DNA from: Dictyostelium discoideum | Lineage: Eukaryota | Length of the DNA stretch: 64,000 nucleotides | Direction: 5' to 3' | NCBI GenBank assembly: GCA_000004695.1 | Contig: CM000153.2 | Span: 1,600,001-1,664,000 of the forward strand | Part shown: positions 1 to 11,458 of the stretch, piece after piece | How positions within the stretch are numbered: position 1 is the stretch's first letter | Layout: each line of letters opens with the position of its first letter | Notes under the pieces: generated by a model | The model's input: the letters and a program-made list of their open reading frames with translations, nothing else | Database searches by the model: none | What the model was told of the DNA's origin: nothing | Made by a program: the position numbers and the translations under genes

Positions 1-501
1 AATTATTAAATAATTATAATAATTATTATTATTCATTATATTCATATTCAATAAAACAAACTGTAAATAATATATTGTAAATAAATCAATTAGACCATAA
101 AAATAAAAATAAAAATAAAGATAAAAAAAAAAAATAATAATAAAAAAAAAAAAAAAATTTAAATTCAATAAGAACACATAATAGTTTAATATTATTAATT
201 AATTAATAAATAATAAAATTTAAAAGGTTTAAAAAAAATATATCAAAATTTTTTCTTTTTTATATTAGAAATTAAATTATTTATTTTTTATTTATTCTTT
301 TGTTTTTTTTAATAGTAGATAGTTTTATTTTTGTCATAATTGGTTTTTAAACCCTATATGTTTAAAAAAAATTAAAAACGGTGTATTTTAGAATCCTAAA
401 TATCTATCCATTAGCTTTCATTCTCTAAATTTAATTTCTATTTTCTAACCATGTTTTTATAAACCCTGGGATTTCCTTATATATTATTTGTGTTTTTATT
501 T

Positions 502-536
<35 letters not shown>

Positions 537-547
537 AAAAAAAAAAA

Positions 548-727
548 AAAAAACCTAAAATTTCAAATGTCTGTTTAATTCACACTTCTTGATTGTTTGA
601 TAGAACGGAGTGTTTTTTAGAAAAAAAAAAATCAAAAAAAAAAAAAATCAAAAAAAAACATAAAATTTCGAATGTTTGTTTAATTCACACTTCTTGATTG
701 CTTAATGGAACGGAGTGTAAAAAATTA
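548..727. repeat. Tandem duplicated unit of about 70 bp, two copies with a period of about 110 bp
   Basis: Copy 1 is 'cctaaaatttcaaatgtctgtttaattcacacttcttgattgtttgatagaacggagtg'. Copy 2 is 'cataaaatttcgaatgtttgtttaattcacacttcttgattgcttaatggaacggagtg'. They share about 90% identity. Each is preceded by a long poly(A) tract and each contains the imperfect hairpin CACACTTC...GGAGTG. Confidence 0.6.
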
Positions 728-1110
728 TTTTTTATTTTTTAATTTTTTTTTTTTTATTTTATAATTTTTTTTATTTTTTTTTTTTTTTGTTTAATAAAAC
801 AGAATGATTGTTTGGCAATGACCCAGGTTTTGTCATTCCATTTAATTTATTTTTCATTTTTATAATATTTAATTTTATTTTCTTTTTAGCTTTTTTTTCT
901 TATTTTTTTAACTATAAAATAAAAATTAAATTTCATAATTTTATATATTAAATTTTTTTTTATTATTATCTTAAAAATACCAATTATCTCTCTCTCTATA
1001 TATATTAAAAATATTTTATTCTTTTAATTCTATTTTATAAATTTATTTCAAAATAAAAAAGTATGTTTTTAATTTATTTTATTTAATTATAATTAAAAAA
1101 AAAGTTTACT

Positions 1111-1154
<44 letters not shown>

Positions 1155-1232
1155 CTTCATATTTTTAATATTCTATAATTCTATAAATAATAATTATTTT
1201 TAAACAATATTATTCTCCTTGGTTTCTAAAAG

Positions 1233-1607
1233 ATGATTGCTCAACCACCATCAATTTTAACATTAAATATTGACGATAAATTCAATCAACCAATTGTTGT
1301 TGGCGATTTACAAGAAAGTATTACTTCATTGTCATTGGGATTCGAATTTAATCAAACCATTGCACCTGGTGCATTACCAAACAATCTTAGATCATTATCA
1401 TTAGGTCGTAATTTCAATCAAACTATCACTCCAGGTATTTTACCAAATAGTTTAAAAACTTTAACAATTTTAAATCCAGATTTTAATCAAGAATTAATTA
1501 CAGAAGGTTCAATTCCACCATCTTTAGAACGTATTTACTGTGTCTCTGAAAATAAAGAATTTATAAATAATCCAAGTCTTTCAAAATTCATTCAAATTAT
1601 TAAATAA
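1233..1607 (+). CDS. FNIP repeat-containing protein, single exon, 124 aa
   Basis: Track ORF starting with ATG. It carries tandem copies of the Dictyostelium-specific FNIP repeat (...FNQPI..G.LP.SL.SLSLG..FNQ...), seen as 'FEFNQTIAPGALPNNLRSLSLGRNFNQTITPGILPNSLKTL'. Codon usage is A/T third-position biased, typical of Dictyostelium genes. Confidence 0.6.
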   Translation: MIAQPPSILTLNIDDKFNQPIVVGDLQESITSLSLGFEFNQTIAPGALPNNLRSLSLGRNFNQTITPGILPNSLKTLTILNPDFNQELITEGSIPPSLERIYCVSENKEFINNPSLSKFIQIIK

Positions 1608-1803
1608 TTAAAATTTCTTTCATTTTTCGTTTACAAAAAAAAAAAAAAACTGTACAAAAATAAATTATCAAATAAAAAAAAAAAAACAAAAAGCATTTGT
1701 TATTAAATAAAACACTGAATGTATTTTTGTAATCTTTGGTTTATTTGTTTATTTATTTATTTATTTATTTATTTATTATTTATTTTTTTAAATTCTAGAA
1801 CAT

Positions 1804-1840
<37 letters not shown>

Positions 1841-1904
1841 CTTTTCCCAAAAAAAAAAAAAAAAATTATTATCTTAATGGTGGAATAATTGATAATTTTC
1901 CTAT

Positions 1905-2960
1905 TTAATTTTCAGATAGTGGATGTTGTGGGTCACAGGTGTTGAGCTTGAGGATGCTTCTTGTTGTTCTGTTGTTAGTGTACGTTCCCCTCCATTAGAA
2001 TTTTGGGCTCTAAAAGCTTTTAAATCTGATCTGTATCTTATTTTTTTCATTTTTATGTTTGCTCCATCCATTTTACTTGTGAATTACCACCTGTCTCCTC
2101 CCCCTCAAATTCAATATCACATGAAATTGAATCATAATTTAAAAATGAACAATTATATAGTTGTTCATTTGAAAAACAATAAACACTTGAATTATCAGAT
2201 GTGTTTGGAATGAAATTTTCACCATTAATTATAAATTGACCACTTGTGGAATTAAAAACTGGATACTTATTTATTGGGGCTAGGATGGTGATATATCAAC
2301 TTTAAGACCTACTGATGTTTCATCACATACTATTAAAGAAGTTCACTTGATCCATATTCATGTTTTAAAGGGAATAAAAAGTAGTTATTTTCAAATATTA
2401 TTTCTTCAGTACGTGTTGTTTGATTTTCAATTGACATCGAAACTTGATTTCTACCACAACCTTTTGGAATAGGGAATGTGTATGTACGAGTTGGAAACTC
2501 TTTTGAATTTGAATTATCGATACCTATAATAGTTGTATTGTCCATTAATGTAAGAGTTGGTAAACTACTATAATTGAATAAATTTATATTGTATAATGTA
2601 AAGTTTACAAATTGACCAAGTACTGATGGTGATAATGGTGATGATTTAACAAAGAATGATAAATCAATTTGAACAATATTTGATTTTTTACCATTTACAA
2701 TTATATATAATTTTGATTTTTTAATTTGATTTAATGGTGTAAATGATAAAGTGTTTGTTTATCATTTACAATTGTCGTTAAATTAAATTGTTGAATATCA
2801 TCAATATATACTTGAGTTGATTCATTCGTACCCTAGACAGTCACCAATTTATTTAACTTCTCTTAGAGGAAGAATAAAATCAGAAATAAAAGGTACATCA
2901 AATGAAAATAATAATTTATTATCATTTACAATCCATTTATTGATACATTAACTTGTAAAC
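1905..2960 (-). pseudogene. Fragmented protein-like region on the minus strand, probably a decayed or unusually spliced Cys-containing secreted-type protein
   Basis: This island is GC-richer than its surroundings. The minus strand gives several long protein-like stretches in different frames, separated by stops or frameshifts: '...IPVFNSTSGQFIINGENFIPNTSDNSSVYCFSNEQLYNCSFLNYDSISCDIEFEGEETGGNSQVKWMEQT*' (about 2265-2040); 'TLSFTPLNQIKKSKLYIIVNGKK...MDNTTIIGIDNSNSKEFPTRTYTFPIPKGCGRNQVSMSIENQTTRTEEIIFENNYFLFPLKHEYGSSELL*' (about 2760-2333); and 'RAQNSNGGERTLTTEQQEASSSSTPVTHNIHYLKIK*' (about 2045-1905). I could not build a canonical GT-AG model, because the candidate introns are not AT-rich and lack GTAAGT donors. 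Confidence 0.3.
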
Positions 2961-3327
2961 CAATAGAATCATAATTGACTAATTAAATTATAATAATAGA
3001 TTATTAAAAAAAGAAAAATTTAGTGTTATGTGTGTGGTAATTAAATTCTTAATTATTTTTGGCTTTCAATGATTATAAAATCACACACAGTAATAAAGGA
3101 AATTATTGTGTGTTTAATAAATTCATGGGGATTTTTTTGTGTATTTTTTAATTTCCAATTGTAAAAGAATAAAGATTAAAAAACTATAATAAAATTTAAA
3201 AAGAAATTTACAAAACAAATCTTGTTCAATATTTTTCTTTTTTTTTTTTTTTTTTTTTTTTTTATCAATTATTTAATGATTGTGTTTTTATTTTTTTATT
3301 TTATTATATTATATTTTTATTATATTT

Positions 3328-4931
3328 TTAGAATTCACCTCTTGCGAGACGATCCAATAAATCATCTAAAGAATCATCATCAACCACAGTAGTTGAAGTA
3401 GTTGTTGAACTAGTGGTGCCAATTGTATCCAATGAATTTATTGCCATATCATAATTGATTGCATTTGAATTTTGATTAGAGATAGATTGATTAGCCTCTT
3501 TAAGAAGATCATCGAAATTAAAGTTATTTGAATTCATTATTGATTCCAATTCTTCAAAAGTAAATGATTCTTCATTATCATCATTAACAATTACATCATT
3601 TGATTTATTTTCATTTTCAATTGTTTGTTCTTGATGTTGATGTTCTTCCTCAATTGCATGTTCTTCTTCATAATATTCTTCTTGGTGGTGTTGCTCTTGT
3701 TCTTGTTCTTGTTGTTGTTCTTGTTCTTGTTCTTGTTGTTGTTGTTGTTCCTCTTGAATTGGCTCTCGAGGTTGTTCTTGTTCATCATCATATTGTTCAT
3801 AGTGTTGTTGATCTTCTTCATAATACTCCTCTTCTTGTTGTTGAGGTTGTTCTTCAACAACGGGTAAATTAACAGGTTTTTCTGGAACTGGTGGCTTTGT
3901 TCTTGCTGGTGGTGGTGGAGGTGGAGTTTTTTTTGGTGGATTATTATATTGTAATGAAACTGGTCTCTTAATTTGTGGTGAATCAGTTGGTGATGGTGGT
4001 GGTGGAAGAACTGAAATATCAATTGGTGGTGGTGCATCTTGTGATGAAGTAAGTGTTGGTGGTGGTGGAAGAACTGAACCAGATGGTGATAATGTAGTTT
4101 CAGAAGCTGTCGTTGTTGGTGGTTGTTTAATGAATGATCTTGGTGGTGTTGGTGGTTTTTTCAAAGTTTCAACTGGTGGTGGATTCATTTGTTGTAATAA
4201 TTGTGGTGAAACTGGTGGTGGTTCACTACTAGTTCTTGATAATATAGTAGAAGGTGGTGATAATGAACCATCCGTTGTTGTTGTTGTTGTTGTTGGTGGT
4301 GGTTGATTTGGTGATTTTGCAATTGGTCTTTTTGCAACAGGTGGAGGTGGTGCTAATGTAGTTGGTGGTGCTGTTGATGTTGTAGTTGGTGGTGGTACTG
4401 ATGGTCTACCTGGTGGTAAAGTTGGTTTATTAGATGGTGAAAGTTTAGTAGTGGTAGTTGATTTTGGTGGTGGAATTGGTTTAGGATCGCCTGCTTTTGG
4501 TGGTGCTTTTGGTACAAATTGACTTGGAGCTGGTGATTTCTTTAATGCTGTTGGGGGTGGTGATTGAGGTGGTGGTGGTAAACTATTACCACTACTTGAT
4601 AATGCATTATGTGGTAATGAAGGTTGTAGTGGTGATTTTGGTGGTGATGGTAAAACTGTATTATCACTACTAGATGATAATGGTGGTGGTGCAGCAACTG
4701 AACCATTTGCAACCTTTGGTGGAGGTTTTCTTTTTGCCATCATTGGTGCTGGTTTACCAGTGGCATTGGCAGAATTTACTGGTTTTAATTTTGCAATTGT
4801 TGGTTGTGGTGGTTCTGGTACCACATCTCCATTACTATTTTTATTATTATTATTTACATTTGGTGATGGTTTAGCAGCTATCTTTCTTTGTGGTGGTAAT
4901 TTTTTATTTGCAGTATTTTGACTATTATTAC

Positions 4932-4975
<44 letters not shown>

Positions 4976-5870
4976 GTCATCATCATTGAAATTCTTTGTT
5001 TAGTTTGTTCTGGACTTGTATCATGGAAATGTTTAATGATTATGCCCAAAATTCTCATCATTGTTTCAGGTCTAGTCTCCCACATATCTTCACCAGTGAT
5101 ATTTACTAAATTAACACCTAAAACTTTTAAGAAACGTAAAATGATATTATTATTTTCAATTATATGAATTTTTGTTGTTGGTGTTCTATTGAAATCTTTA
5201 ATTGATAAACCACTTAAACCTTCCAATAATAATGCCAAAACACAACCATTTTTTAAATCTGATTCTAAATTTTCAATCTTTTCATTCTTTCCAAATTCAA
5301 CTAATTTCTTATTAATCCAATCAATTATAACTGTTTGTGATTGTTCTTTTTTTGGTGTTGATTTTAAAATTGGTTTCTAAAAAAAAAAAAAAAGGAAAAT
5401 AAAACTATTAGTGTTGTTTTTTTTTTTTTTTTTTTTTTTTTTTGGAAATTAAATTAAAATAATAATCATACATTATCAGGATTATTTCTTTTTAAAGCAA
5501 TTTCATTCATTAATGGATTAATACCGAATGATCTTTGTGGTGCTCTATCTTCATCTGGAGTTGGTGGTGGATGTGATGGTGGACCTGAATCACCAACTGA
5601 AACACTTGTTTTTTGAGGTGTTGGTGGCAATCTAGATGGTGGTTTACTAGTAGTATTAGTTTGAGTTGATGCTGAAACACCATGTGTTGTTGTTGGTAAT
5701 GATTCTTCACCCCATTTTACTGAATCCTTTTTCTTTTTGAAGATTAATTTAAATTTATCTAATTGGTTATCCTCTTCCCATTTTTTATAAATTGTTCCTG
5801 GATTTTCTGTTTCTGCTATCTCTTGACATGTAATTCCTAATTCATTTTCATTGTTTGTTGATTTTATCAT
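3328..5870 (-). CDS. Calponin-homology (CH) domain protein with a long Pro/Ser/Thr-rich region and an acidic Gln/Glu-rich C-terminus. Two exons: about 5870..5472 and 5376..3328, roughly 815 aa
   Basis: Exon 1 (track ORF 5466..5870, 'MIKSTNNENELGITCQEIAETEN...') ends at NPDN, followed by a GTATGA donor. An AT-rich 95-nt intron ends in TTTTTAG. Exon 2 begins 'KPILKSTPKKEQSQTVIIDWINKKLVEFGKNEKIENLESDLKNGCVLALLLEGLSGLSIKDF...', a classic CH-domain signature (IIDWIN...L.DL.NG..L..LLE.LSG), and then runs in frame into track ORF 3328..5238. The plus-strand ORFs across this region (3600-3872, 4674-4874) are repeat artefacts. Confidence 0.6.
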
Positions 5871-6003
5871 TTTTTTTTTTTTTTTTTTTTTTTAAATGGT
5901 AAAAATAATAATAAAGAAATAAATGGAAAAAAAAAAAAAATTAATATTAATTTTAAAAAAATTAAAATTATTATGATAATAGTAAAAAAAGAAAAGAAAA
6001 AGG

Positions 6004-6508: not shown

Positions 6509-6769
6509 AAATTATTGATTTATTGAAAAAGAATTATTTTTATCTTGTTAAGTTATACAGTTAAATTTGATACAATTTTTTTTTTTTTTTTTTTTATTAT
6601 ACTCTTTTTTTTTTTTTTTTTTTTTTAAAGTATAATTAAAAAAAATTAAAAAAAATAAAAAAAAAATGAATAATATATTCTAAAAATTAAACACACTGAT
6701 TGGTTTTTTTTTTTTTTTTGTGTTGTGTGGGGTAAAAAGTGTATGTTTATTGTAATTTATTAATATTAT

Positions 6770-6806
<37 letters not shown>

Positions 6807-7061
6807 AAAACAGTGGCTAAGCGATAAAAATAACAAAAAAAAAAAGAAAAAAAATGATTGAGATGAGACAAGAGATATATTGTACAATAACCACTATGAA
6901 TATATGTGTATTTATATAAAGGTGTTTAGTGATCTTTGTTGAAATAGTGTATAAAAATATTTATAATAAAAAAAAAAAAAAACCAAAAATAATAGGCAAT
7001 ATTTATTTCTTTCTAAAAAATTTGATCCAACAATTGTTAAAATTAGTTGGTACTGAATTAA

Positions 7062-7119
<58 letters not shown>

Positions 7120-7948
7120 AAGTGTACTAAAATTACATAAAATAAATAAATAAATAAATAATGGAAATAATAAAAAATAAATAAAAAAAAGAAAAATAAA
7201 ATAATAACAAAATAAGAAAAATAAACAAAAAAAAAGACTTTCAGGATTTTTTTTTTTTTTTTTTCATTTTTTTTTTTATTTTTAATTTTTTTTTTTTTTG
7301 AAAAATGACACTTTAGTGCTCAAAAAATGGGTATTCTTTTAGTTAATCTAGATAATGGGAAATTTTATTTGAAATTAAAAAAAAAAAAAAAAAATTTATA
7401 AGAATTTTACTTATAGTGAATCATCAAATGGTAAATCGTATGAATTTTTGAAAGAGTTAGTTTTTTTTTTTTTTTTTTTTTTTATATGACTCTTATACAA
7501 GGCATTTATTTCTAATTTAATTTTTAGTTCATGTTTTTGATTGATTATTTTTTTTATTTTATATTTTTTTTATGGGGGATTTGGATTTATTATTAAAAAA
7601 AAAAAAAAATAAAAAAAAAATAAAAAAAAAAAAAATAAAAAAATTTTCTATAAAAAGAAAATTAAAATTAGATCCCAACGGGGAAAAATAAAAATCTACT
7701 AGTATTTGTTCGTTACTCTGAATTGAAAAAATAATAAGAAAAAAAAAAAATTTTAAAAAAAATAATAAAAAAAAAAAAAAAAATAAAAAAAAAATAAAAA
7801 AAAAAATAAAAAAAAATAAAAAAAAAAATCATTCAATTTGCGCGCGCACATTTAGAAAAATTAATAAACAAATAAACAAATTATTATATTATTATTTTAA
7901 TTTATACATACATTTATACATACATACATATATACATACATATAGAAA

Positions 7949-8528
7949 ATGGATCAACCACAAGAATCAGTATTTATTAGAGTAAATGGTGAAATTTTAG
8001 AATCTCTCATTAATCAAACTTCAGCAAATAAAATATCAAAGGGAATGATTTTAGCTAAGTTTTTAGATATTGACCAAGATAAAGGCACAGCAACAATTGA
8101 ATCAACAGATTCAAAGCATCTTAAATTCTCTGTTCCAAAAGATAAATTTAATTCAATTAATAAAAATAACTATTACCAAATTTGTTTTACTTTTGAATAT
8201 ACCACAACAATTGGTGTACAAGGTGTAGTTTTATCATTATTTGATTTTGGTCCAGTTGATTCTTTTGGTAAGTTTTCATATTAATTCTTTTTTTTTTTTT
8301 AAATTTTAATTTTTCCTATATATAGTTTATTTAAATATTAATTTTTTTTCTTTTTTTTTTATACATTACAACTTTTTTTTTTTTTTTTTTTTTTTTTACC
8401 CAAAATAAAAAAAAATATATTTAGATACTTACTCCTATTCCCTCACATATTTCAATTATTGGAACATTATCAAAGATAGATACCCACAACTTAAAACTGA
8501 ATCTGATCAAATGGACCAACAATATTAA
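7949..8528 (+). CDS. Small OB-fold protein, candidate replication protein A 14 kDa subunit (RPA3-like). Two exons: 7949..8267 and 8425..8528, about 141 aa
   Basis: ATG at 7949. GTAAGT donor at 8268 (phase 1) and acceptor TTTAG at 8420-8424. The product is 'MDQPQESVFIRVNGEILESL...KGMILAKFLDIDQDKGTATIES...VDSFDTYSYSLTYFNYWNIIKDRYPQLKTESDQMDQQY'. The size and two motifs resemble human RPA3: 'RVNGEIL' against 'RINAGML', and the C-terminal 'FDTYSYSLTYFNYWNIIKDRYPQL' against '[22 protein letters not shown]'. The assignment is by memory-based similarity only. Confidence 0.45.
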
Positions 8529-8855
8529 AATTAAAAGGAAGGAAAAAAAAAAAAATAAAAAAAATAAAAAAAAAAAAATAAAAAAATAATAAAACTTTTT
8601 TTGTATATGTAAAAATCTAATTTTAAAATTTTATAAATTTTATTAAGTTTGATCAAAATTAGTAATATTTTTAACACCAAATTTACACTTCATCCGAATT
8701 TCAAAAAAAAAATAAAAAATTAAAAAAAAAAATGAAAAAAAAAAAATAAAATAAAATTTCATCTTTTTTTTTTTTTTATTATTTTTTTTTTTTTAATTTC
8801 AGTTCACCAAACAAAAAAAAAAAAAAAAAAAAAAAAAGAAAAAGAAATAGTAGCA

Positions 8856-9984
8856 ATGAATAATAAAAAGTTTCAAGTTAATTTCAATAACATTCCAAAA
8901 TTACCAAAAGGTAGTTTCGGTGGCGGTTTTGGTTTATTAGCATTAGGTGGTGTTGGTTTATTAGCACTTAGTAGTTTAGTTAATGGTAAGTTCCAAATAA
9001 TTTCAAAAAAAAAAAAAAAAGTATATTGTAAAAAACCAAAAATTCTAATAGTAATTATTTAATTATTTATTTTATGACTATTTATTTATTTATTTATTTT
9101 ATGACTATTATTTATAGTTGAAGGTGGTCATAGAGCAATTGTATTTAATAGATTTGTTGGTATAAAGAATAAAGTTTATAATGAAGGTACTCATTTTATT
9201 GTTCCATGGTTTGAACGTGCTGAAATTTATGATGTTAGAGCTAAACCACGTAGTATTTCATCATTAACTGGTAGTAAAGATCTTCAAATGGTTAATATTA
9301 CAATCAGAGTTTTATCAAAACCAAAAGTTAGTCAACTTCCAGCCATCTATAGAACATTGGGTAAAGATTATGATGAAAGAGTATTACCATCAATTGTAAA
9401 TGAAATTTTAAAGAGTATTGTTGCACAATTCAATGCATCTCAATTAATCACTCAAAGAGAACAAGTGTCAAGATTAATCTTTAAAAGATTAGTTGATCGT
9501 GCTAAAGATTTCAATATTGAATTAGATGATGTTTCAATTGTAAATATTATTATTATTATAAATTATATAATTAATTAATTTATTAATTAATTATTTACCA
9601 CTAACCAAATTTAATTTTTATTTTTTTATTATTTTTTAATTTTTTATTTTATAGACTCATTTAAATTTTGGTAGAGAATATGCAGCAGCAATTGAAGCAA
9701 AACAAGTTGCACAACAAGAAGCTGAAAGAGCACGTTTCTTAGTTGAAAAAGCATTACAAGATAAAAGAAGTATCATTGTTAAAGCAGAAGGTGAAGCCCA
9801 ATCTGCTCAACTTATTAATGATGCAATTAAACAATCACCATACTTGGTACAACTTAGAACTTTAGAAGCAAGTAAAGAAATTGCTCATATCCTTTCAAAA
9901 TCACCAAACAAATTATATATTAGCAATGAAACTTTATTATTAAATGGTTTTGATTTAAATAATAATCAACAACCAAAAAAATAA
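8856..9984 (+). CDS. phbB: Prohibitin-2 (PHB/SPFH domain). Three exons: 8856..8985, 9118..9539, 9655..9984; 293 aa
   Basis: The exon 2 product '[118 protein letters not shown]' is near-identical in pattern to human PHB2. Exon 3 '[80 protein letters not shown]...' matches as well. Donors are GTAAGT (8986) and GTAAAT (9540), with AT-rich introns and acceptors TTTATAG. Exon lengths of 130, 422 and 330 nt keep the frame. Confidence 0.85.
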
Positions 9985-10128
9985 ATAAATAAAATAGTAA
10001 ATTTAAATTTTATAAATAATAAATAATAAATAATGATAATATAAATGTAAATATATATTTAATTTTTATTTTTTTTAAAAGAATTCACTTTATTTTTATT
10101 TTTTTTTTTTTATTTTTTTTTAATGTAT

Positions 10129-11458
10129 TTAAGCGGTAGTGGTAACATCTGGAGTAGTTGCGGTGGCATCTCTTGGTTCTGGAACTAAAGCGATTTTAAC
10201 AGAGAGTTCTCTACTTTCAACAGAGAGTTTGTTAAGGGTGAGACCTTTTTGTTGATTGGCAACATCATCGAATTCGACGAAACCGAAACCTTTGCTTCTG
10301 TTGGTGTGTTTGTTGACAATGACATGAGCACTCTTTGGTGAGCAATCTTTGAAGGTTTCTAATAATTTAACATCATCAAAAGAGTATGGAATGTTTCTGA
10401 CAAAGAGGGTAGTGGTACTTTGTTGTCTGTCAGCAGTGTTGGCAGCTGGTCTTCTTTCTCTCTTTGGTTTAGAGGTTTTGGTAGCTGGAGCAGCGGCGGT
10501 TGAGGCAGCAGCAGTGTTGGTGGTGGCATCGGTGTTGGTGGTGGTAGTGGCAGCTTTGACGTCTTTGGTGTTACGTCTGGCATTTCTACGTTTGGTGGTG
10601 GTATTACCATTTAAAGTTGGTGATGCTTCAGTGGATTCAGTAGTAGCATTTTCGCCAGTGGTGGTGCTGGTTGGTTTTGGTGTTCTAGTCTTTCTGGTTG
10701 AAGTTCTCTTTGGTTTGCTTTCGGTACTCTTTTCACGAGCGATTTCAACATTGACTTGTTTACCGTCGAATTCTCTACCATTGATGGCGGCAACAGCTTT
10801 ATTGGCAGTTTCTAAATCTTCCATATCAACGAAACCAAAAGTGTTACTCTTGAACTTCTTTTTAATGATTCTAACACTTAAACTATAATATTTTTTTTAT
10901 TTTAAATAAAATTAATATTAATATTCAAAAAATAAAAAAGAGTTTATATAAAATTATTATTAAAAAAAAAAAAAAATTAAAAAAAAAAACAAGAATTGGG
11001 TTTGAAATTTTTGAGAAAAAAAAAAAATAATTAAATGTTTTGCAAGTTATCCTTTTTTTTTTTTTTTTTTTTTTTTTATTTATTTTTAGGTTTCACCATT
11101 GAGTTTCATTGCATATCACATTGTTTCCTTTGACCTTTTTTTAAAAATTTTTTTTTTTTTTTTGTGTGTGAAAAACGAGCGAAAAAAAACGGGCATAAAA
11201 ATAGTGTGTTTTATTATTGATTTTTTTTAAAAAAAAAAAAAAAAAAAATAGTGTATTGATTTTATGTAGTATTTTTTTTAAAAATATATATTTAGATATA
11301 TAAAAAATTAATTGGTTTTTATTTACTTACACTTTACCGAATTCAGCAAAAGCAGTTTCTAAAGTTGAGGATTCAACATTTTCAGTTAAGTTACCAACAA
11401 AAATTCTGTGGGCTGGAGTAGTTGGGGTGGTGATGGTGGTTTCGGATGGAGCAGACAT
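10129..11458 (-). CDS. RNA-binding protein with two RRM domains. Two exons: 11458..11331 and 10876..10129, about 292 aa
   Basis: Exon 1 reads 'MSAPSETTITTPTTPAHRIFVGNLTENVESSTLETAFAEFGKV' (RNP2 'IFVGNL') and ends at a GTAAGT donor. A 454-nt AT-rich intron follows. Exon 2 reads 'VRIIKKKFKSNTFGFVDMEDLETANKAVAAINGREFDGKQVNVEIA...' (RNP1 'NTFGFVDM'). The second RRM is 'TTLFVRNIPYSFDDVKLLETF...RSKGFGFVEFDD'. A Thr/Ala/Pro-rich linker separates the two. The plus-strand ORF 10349..10888 is antisense noise. Confidence 0.7.

Follow-up and report, generated by a model that had tools for sequence, protein, structure and literature searches.

What is encoded, or was once encoded, in the intergenic region between an FNIP-repeat gene and a calponin-homology (CH) domain gene of Dictyostelium discoideum AX4? 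In the 64-kb stretch of DNA analysed here (the window), a preliminary description made from the sequence had noted a GC-richer island with protein-like minus-strand segments at positions 1905-2960, and had offered two readings: the preferred one, that a cell-surface protein gene survives here as a pseudogene or in truncated, duplicated form, and a gene with non-canonical splicing. We consider it very probable that window positions 2976-1869 (minus strand) represent a dead, non-processed pseudogene remnant of the tgrA-like Tgr cell-surface family. Tgr (“tiger”) proteins are transmembrane, IPT/TIG, Ig E-set repeat proteins of the Dictyostelium cell surface. For AX4, 38 tgr genes have been counted along with 26 pseudogenes, and the subfamilies A/H/I/O, B/E/J, and C/D/K show rapid expansion with many partial fragments (PMC12745789). 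Birth-and-death evolution of the Tgr family was described, with a pseudogene status that differs among strains (bioRxiv 10.1101/2025.10.22.684067).

Extent and Coding Character of the Island

Translation of the minus strand of positions 1850-3060 revealed coding-like stretches in all three frames, among them all of the peptides quoted in the preliminary description. The positions of all features are summarized in Table 1. A GC content of 27.2% was found for 1869-2976, compared to 11.1% and 14.5% in the flanks (1608-1868 and 2977-3327, respectively) and 21% in the window overall. The value for the island was close to that of the FNIP coding sequence (27.5%), while a genuine local intron, that of the neighbouring CH-domain gene, showed 11.6%. 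Homology to the relatives described below started at position 2976, corresponding to their residue ~290-336, and did not end at 1905: it crossed a TAA nonsense codon (1907-1905) and reached as far as the ancestral stop (1871-1869). The island was found where it had been described, with true limits slightly wider than 1905-2960. The remnant comprises 1108 bp, or 363 codons once the frames are corrected. In relatives of 850-960 aa their counterpart is the stretch of residues ~336-683 together with the cytoplasmic tail, i.e. ~40% of the full length.

Instead of one continuous Tgr frame of ~850-1100 codons, eight frame segments and two nonsense codons were observed. The earlier view that the segments lie in three frames, broken by stops and frameshifts, was correct. 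The “spacers” assumed to separate them do not exist: where one frame segment ends, the next has already begun or follows directly, and the transitions consist of 1-nt indels, a deletion of 10 nt or nonsense codons. Due to this broken frame the remnant was filed as a pseudogene derived from the Tgr family and not as a member gene. It adjoins the FNIP gene, as previously noted, at a distance of 260 bp from the FNIP 3' end; however, the two are convergent (tail-to-tail), and the remnant does not lie downstream on the same strand. For the neighbour on the other side the CH domain was assigned via the relative P0063 (PF00307). A homology search with the CH-domain gene itself was swamped by low-complexity words, with an Acytostelium CH-domain protein as the sole return. 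Homology searches including tblastn found no further tgr-like sequence in the rest of the 64-kb window, with 1875-2979 as the sole match, and a repeat scan of 1600-3340 yielded homopolymer-type repeats only.

Table 1. Features of the remnant locus in window coordinates. The syntenic alleles L002 and L003 serve as reference for the lesions.
Feature	Position	Strand	Basis or remark
FNIP-repeat gene DDB_G0284111, intact, 124 aa	1233..1607	+	exact match to XP_638762.1, D. discoideum AX4
Whole remnant, very probably a tgrA-like pseudogene	1869..2976	-	tblastn and blastn limits; frame-corrected blastp; exact substring of L001
Frame 0 open segments	2982-2929, 2832-2734, 2295-2056 (80 aa)	-	translation
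Frame 2 open segments	2947-2852, 2758-2336 (141 aa), 2083-1904	-	translation
Frame 1 open segments	2342-2283, 1994-1908	-	translation
TgrO1-like immunoglobulin-like domain (Pfam PF24612, Ig_TgrO1), best preserved part	2411..2644	-	residues 39-116 of the 141-aa segment
Weak IPT/TIG domain match	2113..2262	-	PF01833 within the 80-aa segment
Cytoplasmic-tail remnant KFTSKM..KMKKIRYRSDLKA..EASSSSTPV..PQHPLSEN*IGKLSIIPPLR*	1869..2085	-	77-89% identity to the P0011 tail
Conserved 5' flank of the ancestral tgr unit	3002..3154	-	81-83% to L004 9281-9408 and 12425-12551; 74% to L004 6989-7174
5' deletion scar, 86 nt, AT-rich	2977..3062	-	L002 has 925 nt (4777-5701) there; net loss ~839-840 bp
1-nt deletion (AATGG-ATT), frame 0 to 2	2932..2933	-	base present in both L002 and L003
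Nonsense TAA, TTA (Leu) in L002/L003, context ...GEVK-L-IGDCLG	2849..2851	-	translation and alignment
1-nt insertion, extra G in GGG run, frame 2 to 0	2831..2833	-	absent from both L002 and L003
1-nt deletion in AAACAAACA(A)CTTTA, frame 0 to 2	2752..2753	-	versus in-frame L003 / P0011 NDKQTTLSFTP
In-frame 159-bp (53-codon) deletion junction	2404..2405	-	alignment
1-nt deletion (GAAC-TTC), frame 2 to 1	2340..2341	-	alignment
In-frame +3 nt	2313-2311	-	alignment
1-nt deletion (CATC-CTAG), frame 1 to 0	2283..2284	-	alignment
16-nt filler replacing ~556-578-nt block (net ~540-562 bp), net frame 0 to 2	2086..2101	-	L002 6738-7293; L003 7221-7798
In-frame 6-nt deletion, cytoplasmic tail	2014/2013	-	alignment
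10-nt frameshifting deletion, cytoplasmic tail	1932/1931	-	alignment
CAA>TAA nonsense codon	1907-1905	-	alignment
Ancestral stop TAA	1871-1869	-	alignment
Calponin-homology (CH), Pro/Gln-rich gene, intact, upstream of the remnant, 815 aa as spliced	3328..5870	-	syntenic in all loci

Domains and Relatives

The PF24612 match was significant (E=3.6e-13, 50 bits at a cut-off of 27.9 bits). The PF01833 match stayed under its cut-off of 20.9 bits (E=0.018, 15.5 bits); a composite ancestral protein passes the cut-offs for both PF24612 and PF01833, and intact paralogs pass that for PF01833. Using the concatenated raw segments as query, only Dictyostelium proteins with PF24612 and PF01833 were matched, the best at E=1.4e-65, and the impression of genuine coding-like sequence was confirmed by these values. 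An ancestral composite of 908 aa was built from the better-preserved alleles and then used as search query. It retrieved full-length relatives of 844-1087 aa, in AX4 P0030, P0035, P0036, and P0039, all on the 3.60-Mb chromosome (chromosome 6), and further P0052 (934 aa, 8.48-Mb chromosome) and P0058 (1038 aa, 4.92-Mb chromosome). When the frame-corrected translation of 363 aa was analyzed by blastp, a single HSP spanned all frame junctions and was collinear with residues ~336-683 of the relatives.

Identities of 60-61% were found to the intact proteins P0028 (D. cf. discoideum), P0029 (D. firmibasis), and P0040. For the AX4 proteins the values were 50-52% (P0030, P0035, P0036, P0039), 44% (P0052), and 33% (P0058). 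The search for a parent of the island led to Tgr relatives, with the closest AX4 paralogs on the 3.6-Mb chromosome. As P0028, P0029, and P0040 are closer to the remnant than any intact AX4 protein, AX4 seems to be without a living member of its closest sub-lineage. The lengths and chromosomes of the AX4 proteins fit those of tgrA1 (846 aa), tgrA5 (934 aa), and tgrO4 (1038 aa) in Table S3 of bioRxiv 10.1101/2025.10.22.684067, and the gene names would follow from this fit and not from named sequences. Since the remnant matches the AX4 proteins of tgrA length (50-52%) better than P0058 (33%), we infer from the matching of lengths and chromosomes to the published table that it is tgrA-like and belongs to the A/H/I/O group. 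With regard to the features of the Tgr family, an Ig/TIG domain and homology along the length were present, while the start codon with the N-terminal signal peptide and the single C-terminal transmembrane helix were absent. Without start codon, signal peptide, and transmembrane helix the AX4 allele cannot make a Tgr protein.

Disabling Lesions of the AX4 Copy

Lesions were called by blastn blocks and by alignment of the window to the syntenic alleles L002 (GCA_054859385.1) and L003 (GCA_054859355.1). A total of three large deletions, six small frameshifting indels, and two TAA nonsense codons were found, and the inferred shifts reproduce the observed frame order f0>f2>f0>f2>f1>f0>f2>f1. The placement of the deletion at 2752..2753 is accurate to about +/-8 nt due to repeat sequence. 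The 5' deletion was defined by the edges of the blastn blocks, with window 3063 equal to L002 4776 and window 2976 equal to L002 5702. The 925-nt stretch present in L002 encodes the N-terminal ~290 residues, and start codon and signal peptide are gone from the AX4 copy. The 159-bp deletion removed FYYELPSVKSCSISSDKMIRC...DDLPKKK, which is kept in L002 and in the paralogs P0003, P0004, and P0006. The deletion of ~556-578 nt took the last TIG domain, the linker, and the transmembrane helix WLLPIAIIFGSI(V/I)IFGPIA(F/L)IIYY. This helix (WLLPIAIIFGSIVIFGPIAFIIYY) is visible in the open reading frames of L002 and L003, inside the block lost at window 2101/2086. The filler left at 2101-2086 contains GGTGGTAATT, a 10/10 match to L002 7050-7059 within the deleted block, and two adjacent deletions at this site are possible on the basis of this short match, which is weak but suggestive. 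Apart from the 5' exon, which no allele shows in recognisable form, no lesion clearly common to AX4 and the L002/L003 alleles was found.

One might ascribe the frameshifts and stops to faulty sequencing or assembly of an AT-rich genome and assume an intact gene behind them, and several of the 1-nt indels indeed sit in short homopolymer or repeat contexts. We rate this explanation as next to impossible. In L001 (GCA_054883475.1), an independent, near-identical assembly which is probably the AX2-214 genome of PMC12745789, the remnant of 1108 bp is found as an exact substring, although both assemblies differ at long homopolymers elsewhere; differences between L001 and the window are confined to homopolymer tracts. 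As the 1108 bp are identical in L001, the lesions are not sequencing errors. Furthermore, base-calling errors cannot account for losses of 159, ~550, and ~840 bp or for the two nonsense substitutions, and start codon, signal peptide, and transmembrane helix are absent even with all small lesions repaired. Disabling lesions that are reproducible in an independent sequence, as observed here, are a mark of a non-processed pseudogene.

Gene Models across the Locus

In L001 the gene caller has placed a single product of 1006 aa over window ~5870-1901, which corresponds to the reading of the remnant as a real, expressed gene with atypical introns, either with exons of its own or as the 3' exons of the upstream CH-domain gene. 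Two sets of GT..AG exons give exactly 1006 aa, and in-frame GT..AG pairs are available at most junctions of the remnant. We were nevertheless led to consider this reading highly unlikely. The 1006-aa exon sets skip the stop of the CH-domain gene via a pseudo-intron of 711-723 nt and then hop frames via others of 59-71 nt with 58-75% AT. The genuine intron of the CH-domain gene at 5471-5377 (95 nt, 88% AT) served as local intron control. Compared to this intron, which lies 2.4 kb away, the pseudo-introns of the fused model had 58-81% AT and 59-723 nt. Enumerating all in-frame GT..AG pairs between consecutive and non-consecutive segments, candidate introns within the remnant were found to have 56-79% AT. 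Every one of them would cut out stretches that paralogs conserve as coding sequence, and neither the TAA at 2851-2849 nor the 10-nt deletion at 1932 is bridged by an in-frame candidate. The short, very AT-rich GT..AG introns sparing conserved coding sequence, which define a spliced Dictyostelium gene, were not found in the remnant, and the alternative of a non-canonically spliced gene raised in the preliminary description had to be given up in view of the lower AT content of the candidate introns (56-79% versus 88%) and of the two lesions without an in-frame candidate.

The gene calls in other genomes point in the same direction. The CH-domain gene was called separately, with 784-813 aa, in L002, L003, L004, L007, and L008, and the calls in L002 and L003 stop at the stop codon of the ORF itself. 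The fusion product would combine a cytoskeletal-type protein with an Ig fragment without signal peptide or transmembrane helix. The fused 1006-aa model in L001, with the exon structure as reconstructed here, is regarded as a gene-caller artefact, i.e. an annotation error in the public model of a near-identical assembly that fuses the remnant to the CH-domain gene.

Selective Constraint

In the ancestral frame, the AX4 remnant was compared with the syntenic sequences of L002, L003, and L004, and the substitutions were counted. Comparing first, second, and third codon positions, 23/27/31 (L002), 15/22/15 (L003), and 36/38/45 (L004) substitutions were found. The adjoining FNIP gene, used as control, showed 0/1/10 substitutions and a dN/dS of 0.03 at similar dS. 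This uniform distribution in the remnant is contrary to the reading as an expressed gene, and its evolution since the split of the lineages was essentially neutral. The dN/dS values of the remnant were 0.98 versus L003 and 0.58 and 0.63 versus L002 and L004, where the values below 1 could reflect early post-divergence constraint or the noise of ~70-115 substitutions. The relaxed constraint of a pseudogene was observed; we are aware of the fact that the dN/dS test alone is not decisive for pseudogene status, since functional, fast-evolving tgr genes can also have high dN/dS. With six frameshifting indels, two nonsense codons, three large deletions, and no codon-position bias in a Tgr remnant, the preferred proposal of the preliminary description, a cell-surface protein gene in the form of a pseudogene or truncated copy, was substantiated.

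The Same Slot in Other Isolates and Species

L002 and L003, both labelled D. discoideum, carry tgr-like sequence in the identical position, between an FNIP pair and a CH-domain, Pro-rich gene of ~810 aa. The L002 copy is near full length with frameshifts and stops of its own. The L003 copy has a different large deletion; it is without the Ig region kept in AX4 and with the transmembrane region lost in AX4. In L004 (D. cf. discoideum) an interval of 12.6 kb harbours 3-4 tandem tgr units, all fragmented, with largest open frames of 522-538 aa. Of these units, the one nearest to the FNIP gene aligns collinearly with the AX4 remnant, and upstream of every tandem unit there is the 5' flank which AX4 retains at window 3002-3154. 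This arrangement of tandem units with a common 5' flank favours unequal crossing-over as the possible source of the units. In L008 (D. cf. discoideum) the N-terminal ~85 codons alone are left. No tgr sequence was found in the slot of D. citrinum (L007, 288-bp interval), D. firmibasis (L005, 1.0 kb), and D. dimigraforme (L006), the last with a polyketide synthase gene there instead.

In the simplest reading of these data, a tgrA-like copy would have entered the intergenic slot in the discoideum clade, presumably by duplication at the DNA level. Tandem amplification by unequal crossing-over may then have taken place in one lineage, and independent decay by different deletions, frameshifts, and stops would have followed in every sampled lineage. 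What AX4 still has of this copy is its central Ig/TIG part and the cytoplasmic tail alone, most likely without residual function.

The remnant might also be non-coding with respect to Tgr and still be retained for another use, for instance if functional tgr paralogs drew on it in gene conversion or recombination, or if it yielded a regulatory or antisense transcript. Partial tgr duplicates were proposed as fragment donors to the expressed tgrB/C loci (PMC12745789), and the FNIP gene, which is convergent, has its 3' end 260 bp from the remnant. However, the donor proposal covers the tgrBC hotspot and not isolated singletons. The best identity to an AX4 Tgr protein is just 50-52% and there is no second tgr in 64 kb, so that recent exchange is not evident. 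The empty slot in three related species and the non-overlapping fragments among isolates argue against a conserved role, and an Rfam scan of window 1-6000, which includes the remnant region, found no family at threshold. Overall, we regard a retained role of this kind as very improbable. There is a slightly better, still very small chance that the remnant is transcribed as 3' extension or as alternative terminal exons of the CH-domain gene, or is kept as an Ig-sequence donor for tgrA-like genes. If the donor reading were true, an isolated tgr fragment would feed recognition-gene diversity outside the tgrBC hotspot. No gene at the remnant locus is listed among the tgr genes with reads (strain QS33, 9 h) in Table S3 of bioRxiv 10.1101/2025.10.22.684067, which is weak evidence against expression; some residual transcription, by itself or as read-through from the CH-domain gene, may still occur.

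Comparison with Known tgr Genes and Pseudogenes

The preferred reading as a dead tgrA-like copy was compared with known members of the family. The remnant has PF24612 and IPT/TIG in common with the tgrA subfamily, which in AX4 comprises the chromosome-6 cluster of tgrA1, tgrA3, and tgrA4, and tgrA5 on chromosome 2. A further likeness to the tgrA cluster is that the L004 copies at the remnant locus are also unpaired and all on one strand (bioRxiv 10.1101/2025.10.22.684067). In contrast to the tgrA genes, the remnant has ~40% of the length, is without start codon, signal peptide, and transmembrane helix, and lies on another chromosome than the tgrA cluster. The annotated AX4 tgr pseudogenes (26 in dictyBase, e.g. 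tgrC_ps1 and tgrB_ps) are likewise truncated, with internal stops and a strain-variable state, and are taken to represent “death” in the birth-and-death process (PMC12745789; bioRxiv 10.1101/2025.10.22.684067). The pseudogenes discussed in those papers sit in clusters, as paired duplicates in the tgrBC hotspot, whereas the remnant is a singleton in AX4 with none else within 64 kb.

The remnant fits the already published birth-and-death pattern of the tgr family, as a new or possibly already catalogued case. It appears slightly unusual as a singleton far from the tgr clusters and without an intact AX4 member of its closest sub-lineage. Alone it matters little, with 26 tgr pseudogenes annotated in AX4 and hundreds of truncated homologs reported across the clade. 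Its modest value lies in a clear and datable case of copies arising and decaying at one non-cluster slot, which is empty in three related species, holds copies with different, partly complementary deletions in the discoideum-clade isolates, and was amplified in one isolate. AX4 would keep the mere carcass of a tgrA-like sub-lineage still intact in relatives. Among expressed genes, tgrB2 resembles the remnant as a truncated Tgr without transmembrane domain; unlike the remnant, it has an uninterrupted frame with N-terminus, an exonic length of 990 nt, and strong expression (bioRxiv 10.1101/2025.10.22.684067).

Lineage-specific content of the FNIP/CH-domain interval

The intergenic interval between the FNIP gene DDB_G0284111 and the calponin-homology (CH) domain gene, which in AX4 holds the tgr remnant (a decayed tgrA-like cell-surface pseudogene), ranged in size from 288 bp in D. 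citrinum to 12.6 kb in one D. cf. discoideum isolate. In D. dimigraforme the position of the remnant is taken by a polyketide synthase ORF with KS, AT, KR and ACP domains. Two different expanding gene families thus occupied one intergenic slot in different lineages.

Coordinates of the compared features
Feature	Source	Position
Syntenic interval, 288 bp, without tgr	D. citrinum, L007	11908-12195
N-terminal ~85 tgr codons, sole tgr content of a 1.0-kb interval	D. cf. discoideum, L008	12206-12443
Interval of 12.6 kb, 3-4 fragmented tgr copies in tandem	D. cf. discoideum, L004	3600-16233
Syntenic interval	D. firmibasis, L005	10376-11400
Polyketide synthase ORF, 2129 aa	D. dimigraforme, L006	11772-18161
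GT/CA-rich motifs	window	3020-3125
Imperfect palindrome including these motifs	D. discoideum isolate, L002	4757-4810
Fused model, 1006 aa	L001 (window)	6669-10630 (~1901-5870)
FNIP DNA comparison	window; L001	1225-1676; 4419-4873
Direct repeat, ~50 nt	window	566-615, 668-717
Direct repeat, conserved	D. discoideum isolate, L003	9148-9338

The GT/CA-rich motifs cacacacagtaataaaggaaattattgtgtgtttaata and, close by, gtgttatgtgtgtggtaattaaattc lie within a conserved 5' flank, which recurs ahead of every tandem tgr unit in L004 and may represent the ancestral promoter region.

Gene models and neighbouring elements

The public annotation of the near-identical independent assembly L001 (GCA_054883475.1) joins the Pro-rich CH-domain gene and the tgr remnant into a single product. 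Only two exon sets reproduced its length, and both required pseudo-introns of 58-81% AT which bypass the stop codon of the CH-domain gene. The fused model is probably an artefact of gene prediction.

Just beyond the window start lies DDB_G0284109, a tandem paralog of DDB_G0284111 with 91% DNA identity; the corresponding locus of D. firmibasis, like that of D. dimigraforme, carries one FNIP copy. Ahead of DDB_G0284111, an AT-rich spacer contains a direct repeat (aatgtYtgtttaattcacacttcttgattgYtt..ggaacggagtgt). No Rfam match was obtained for it in a scan of window 1-6000. It is ~90% conserved in L003, above the surrounding intergenic DNA, and may correspond to a regulatory element or small RNA.
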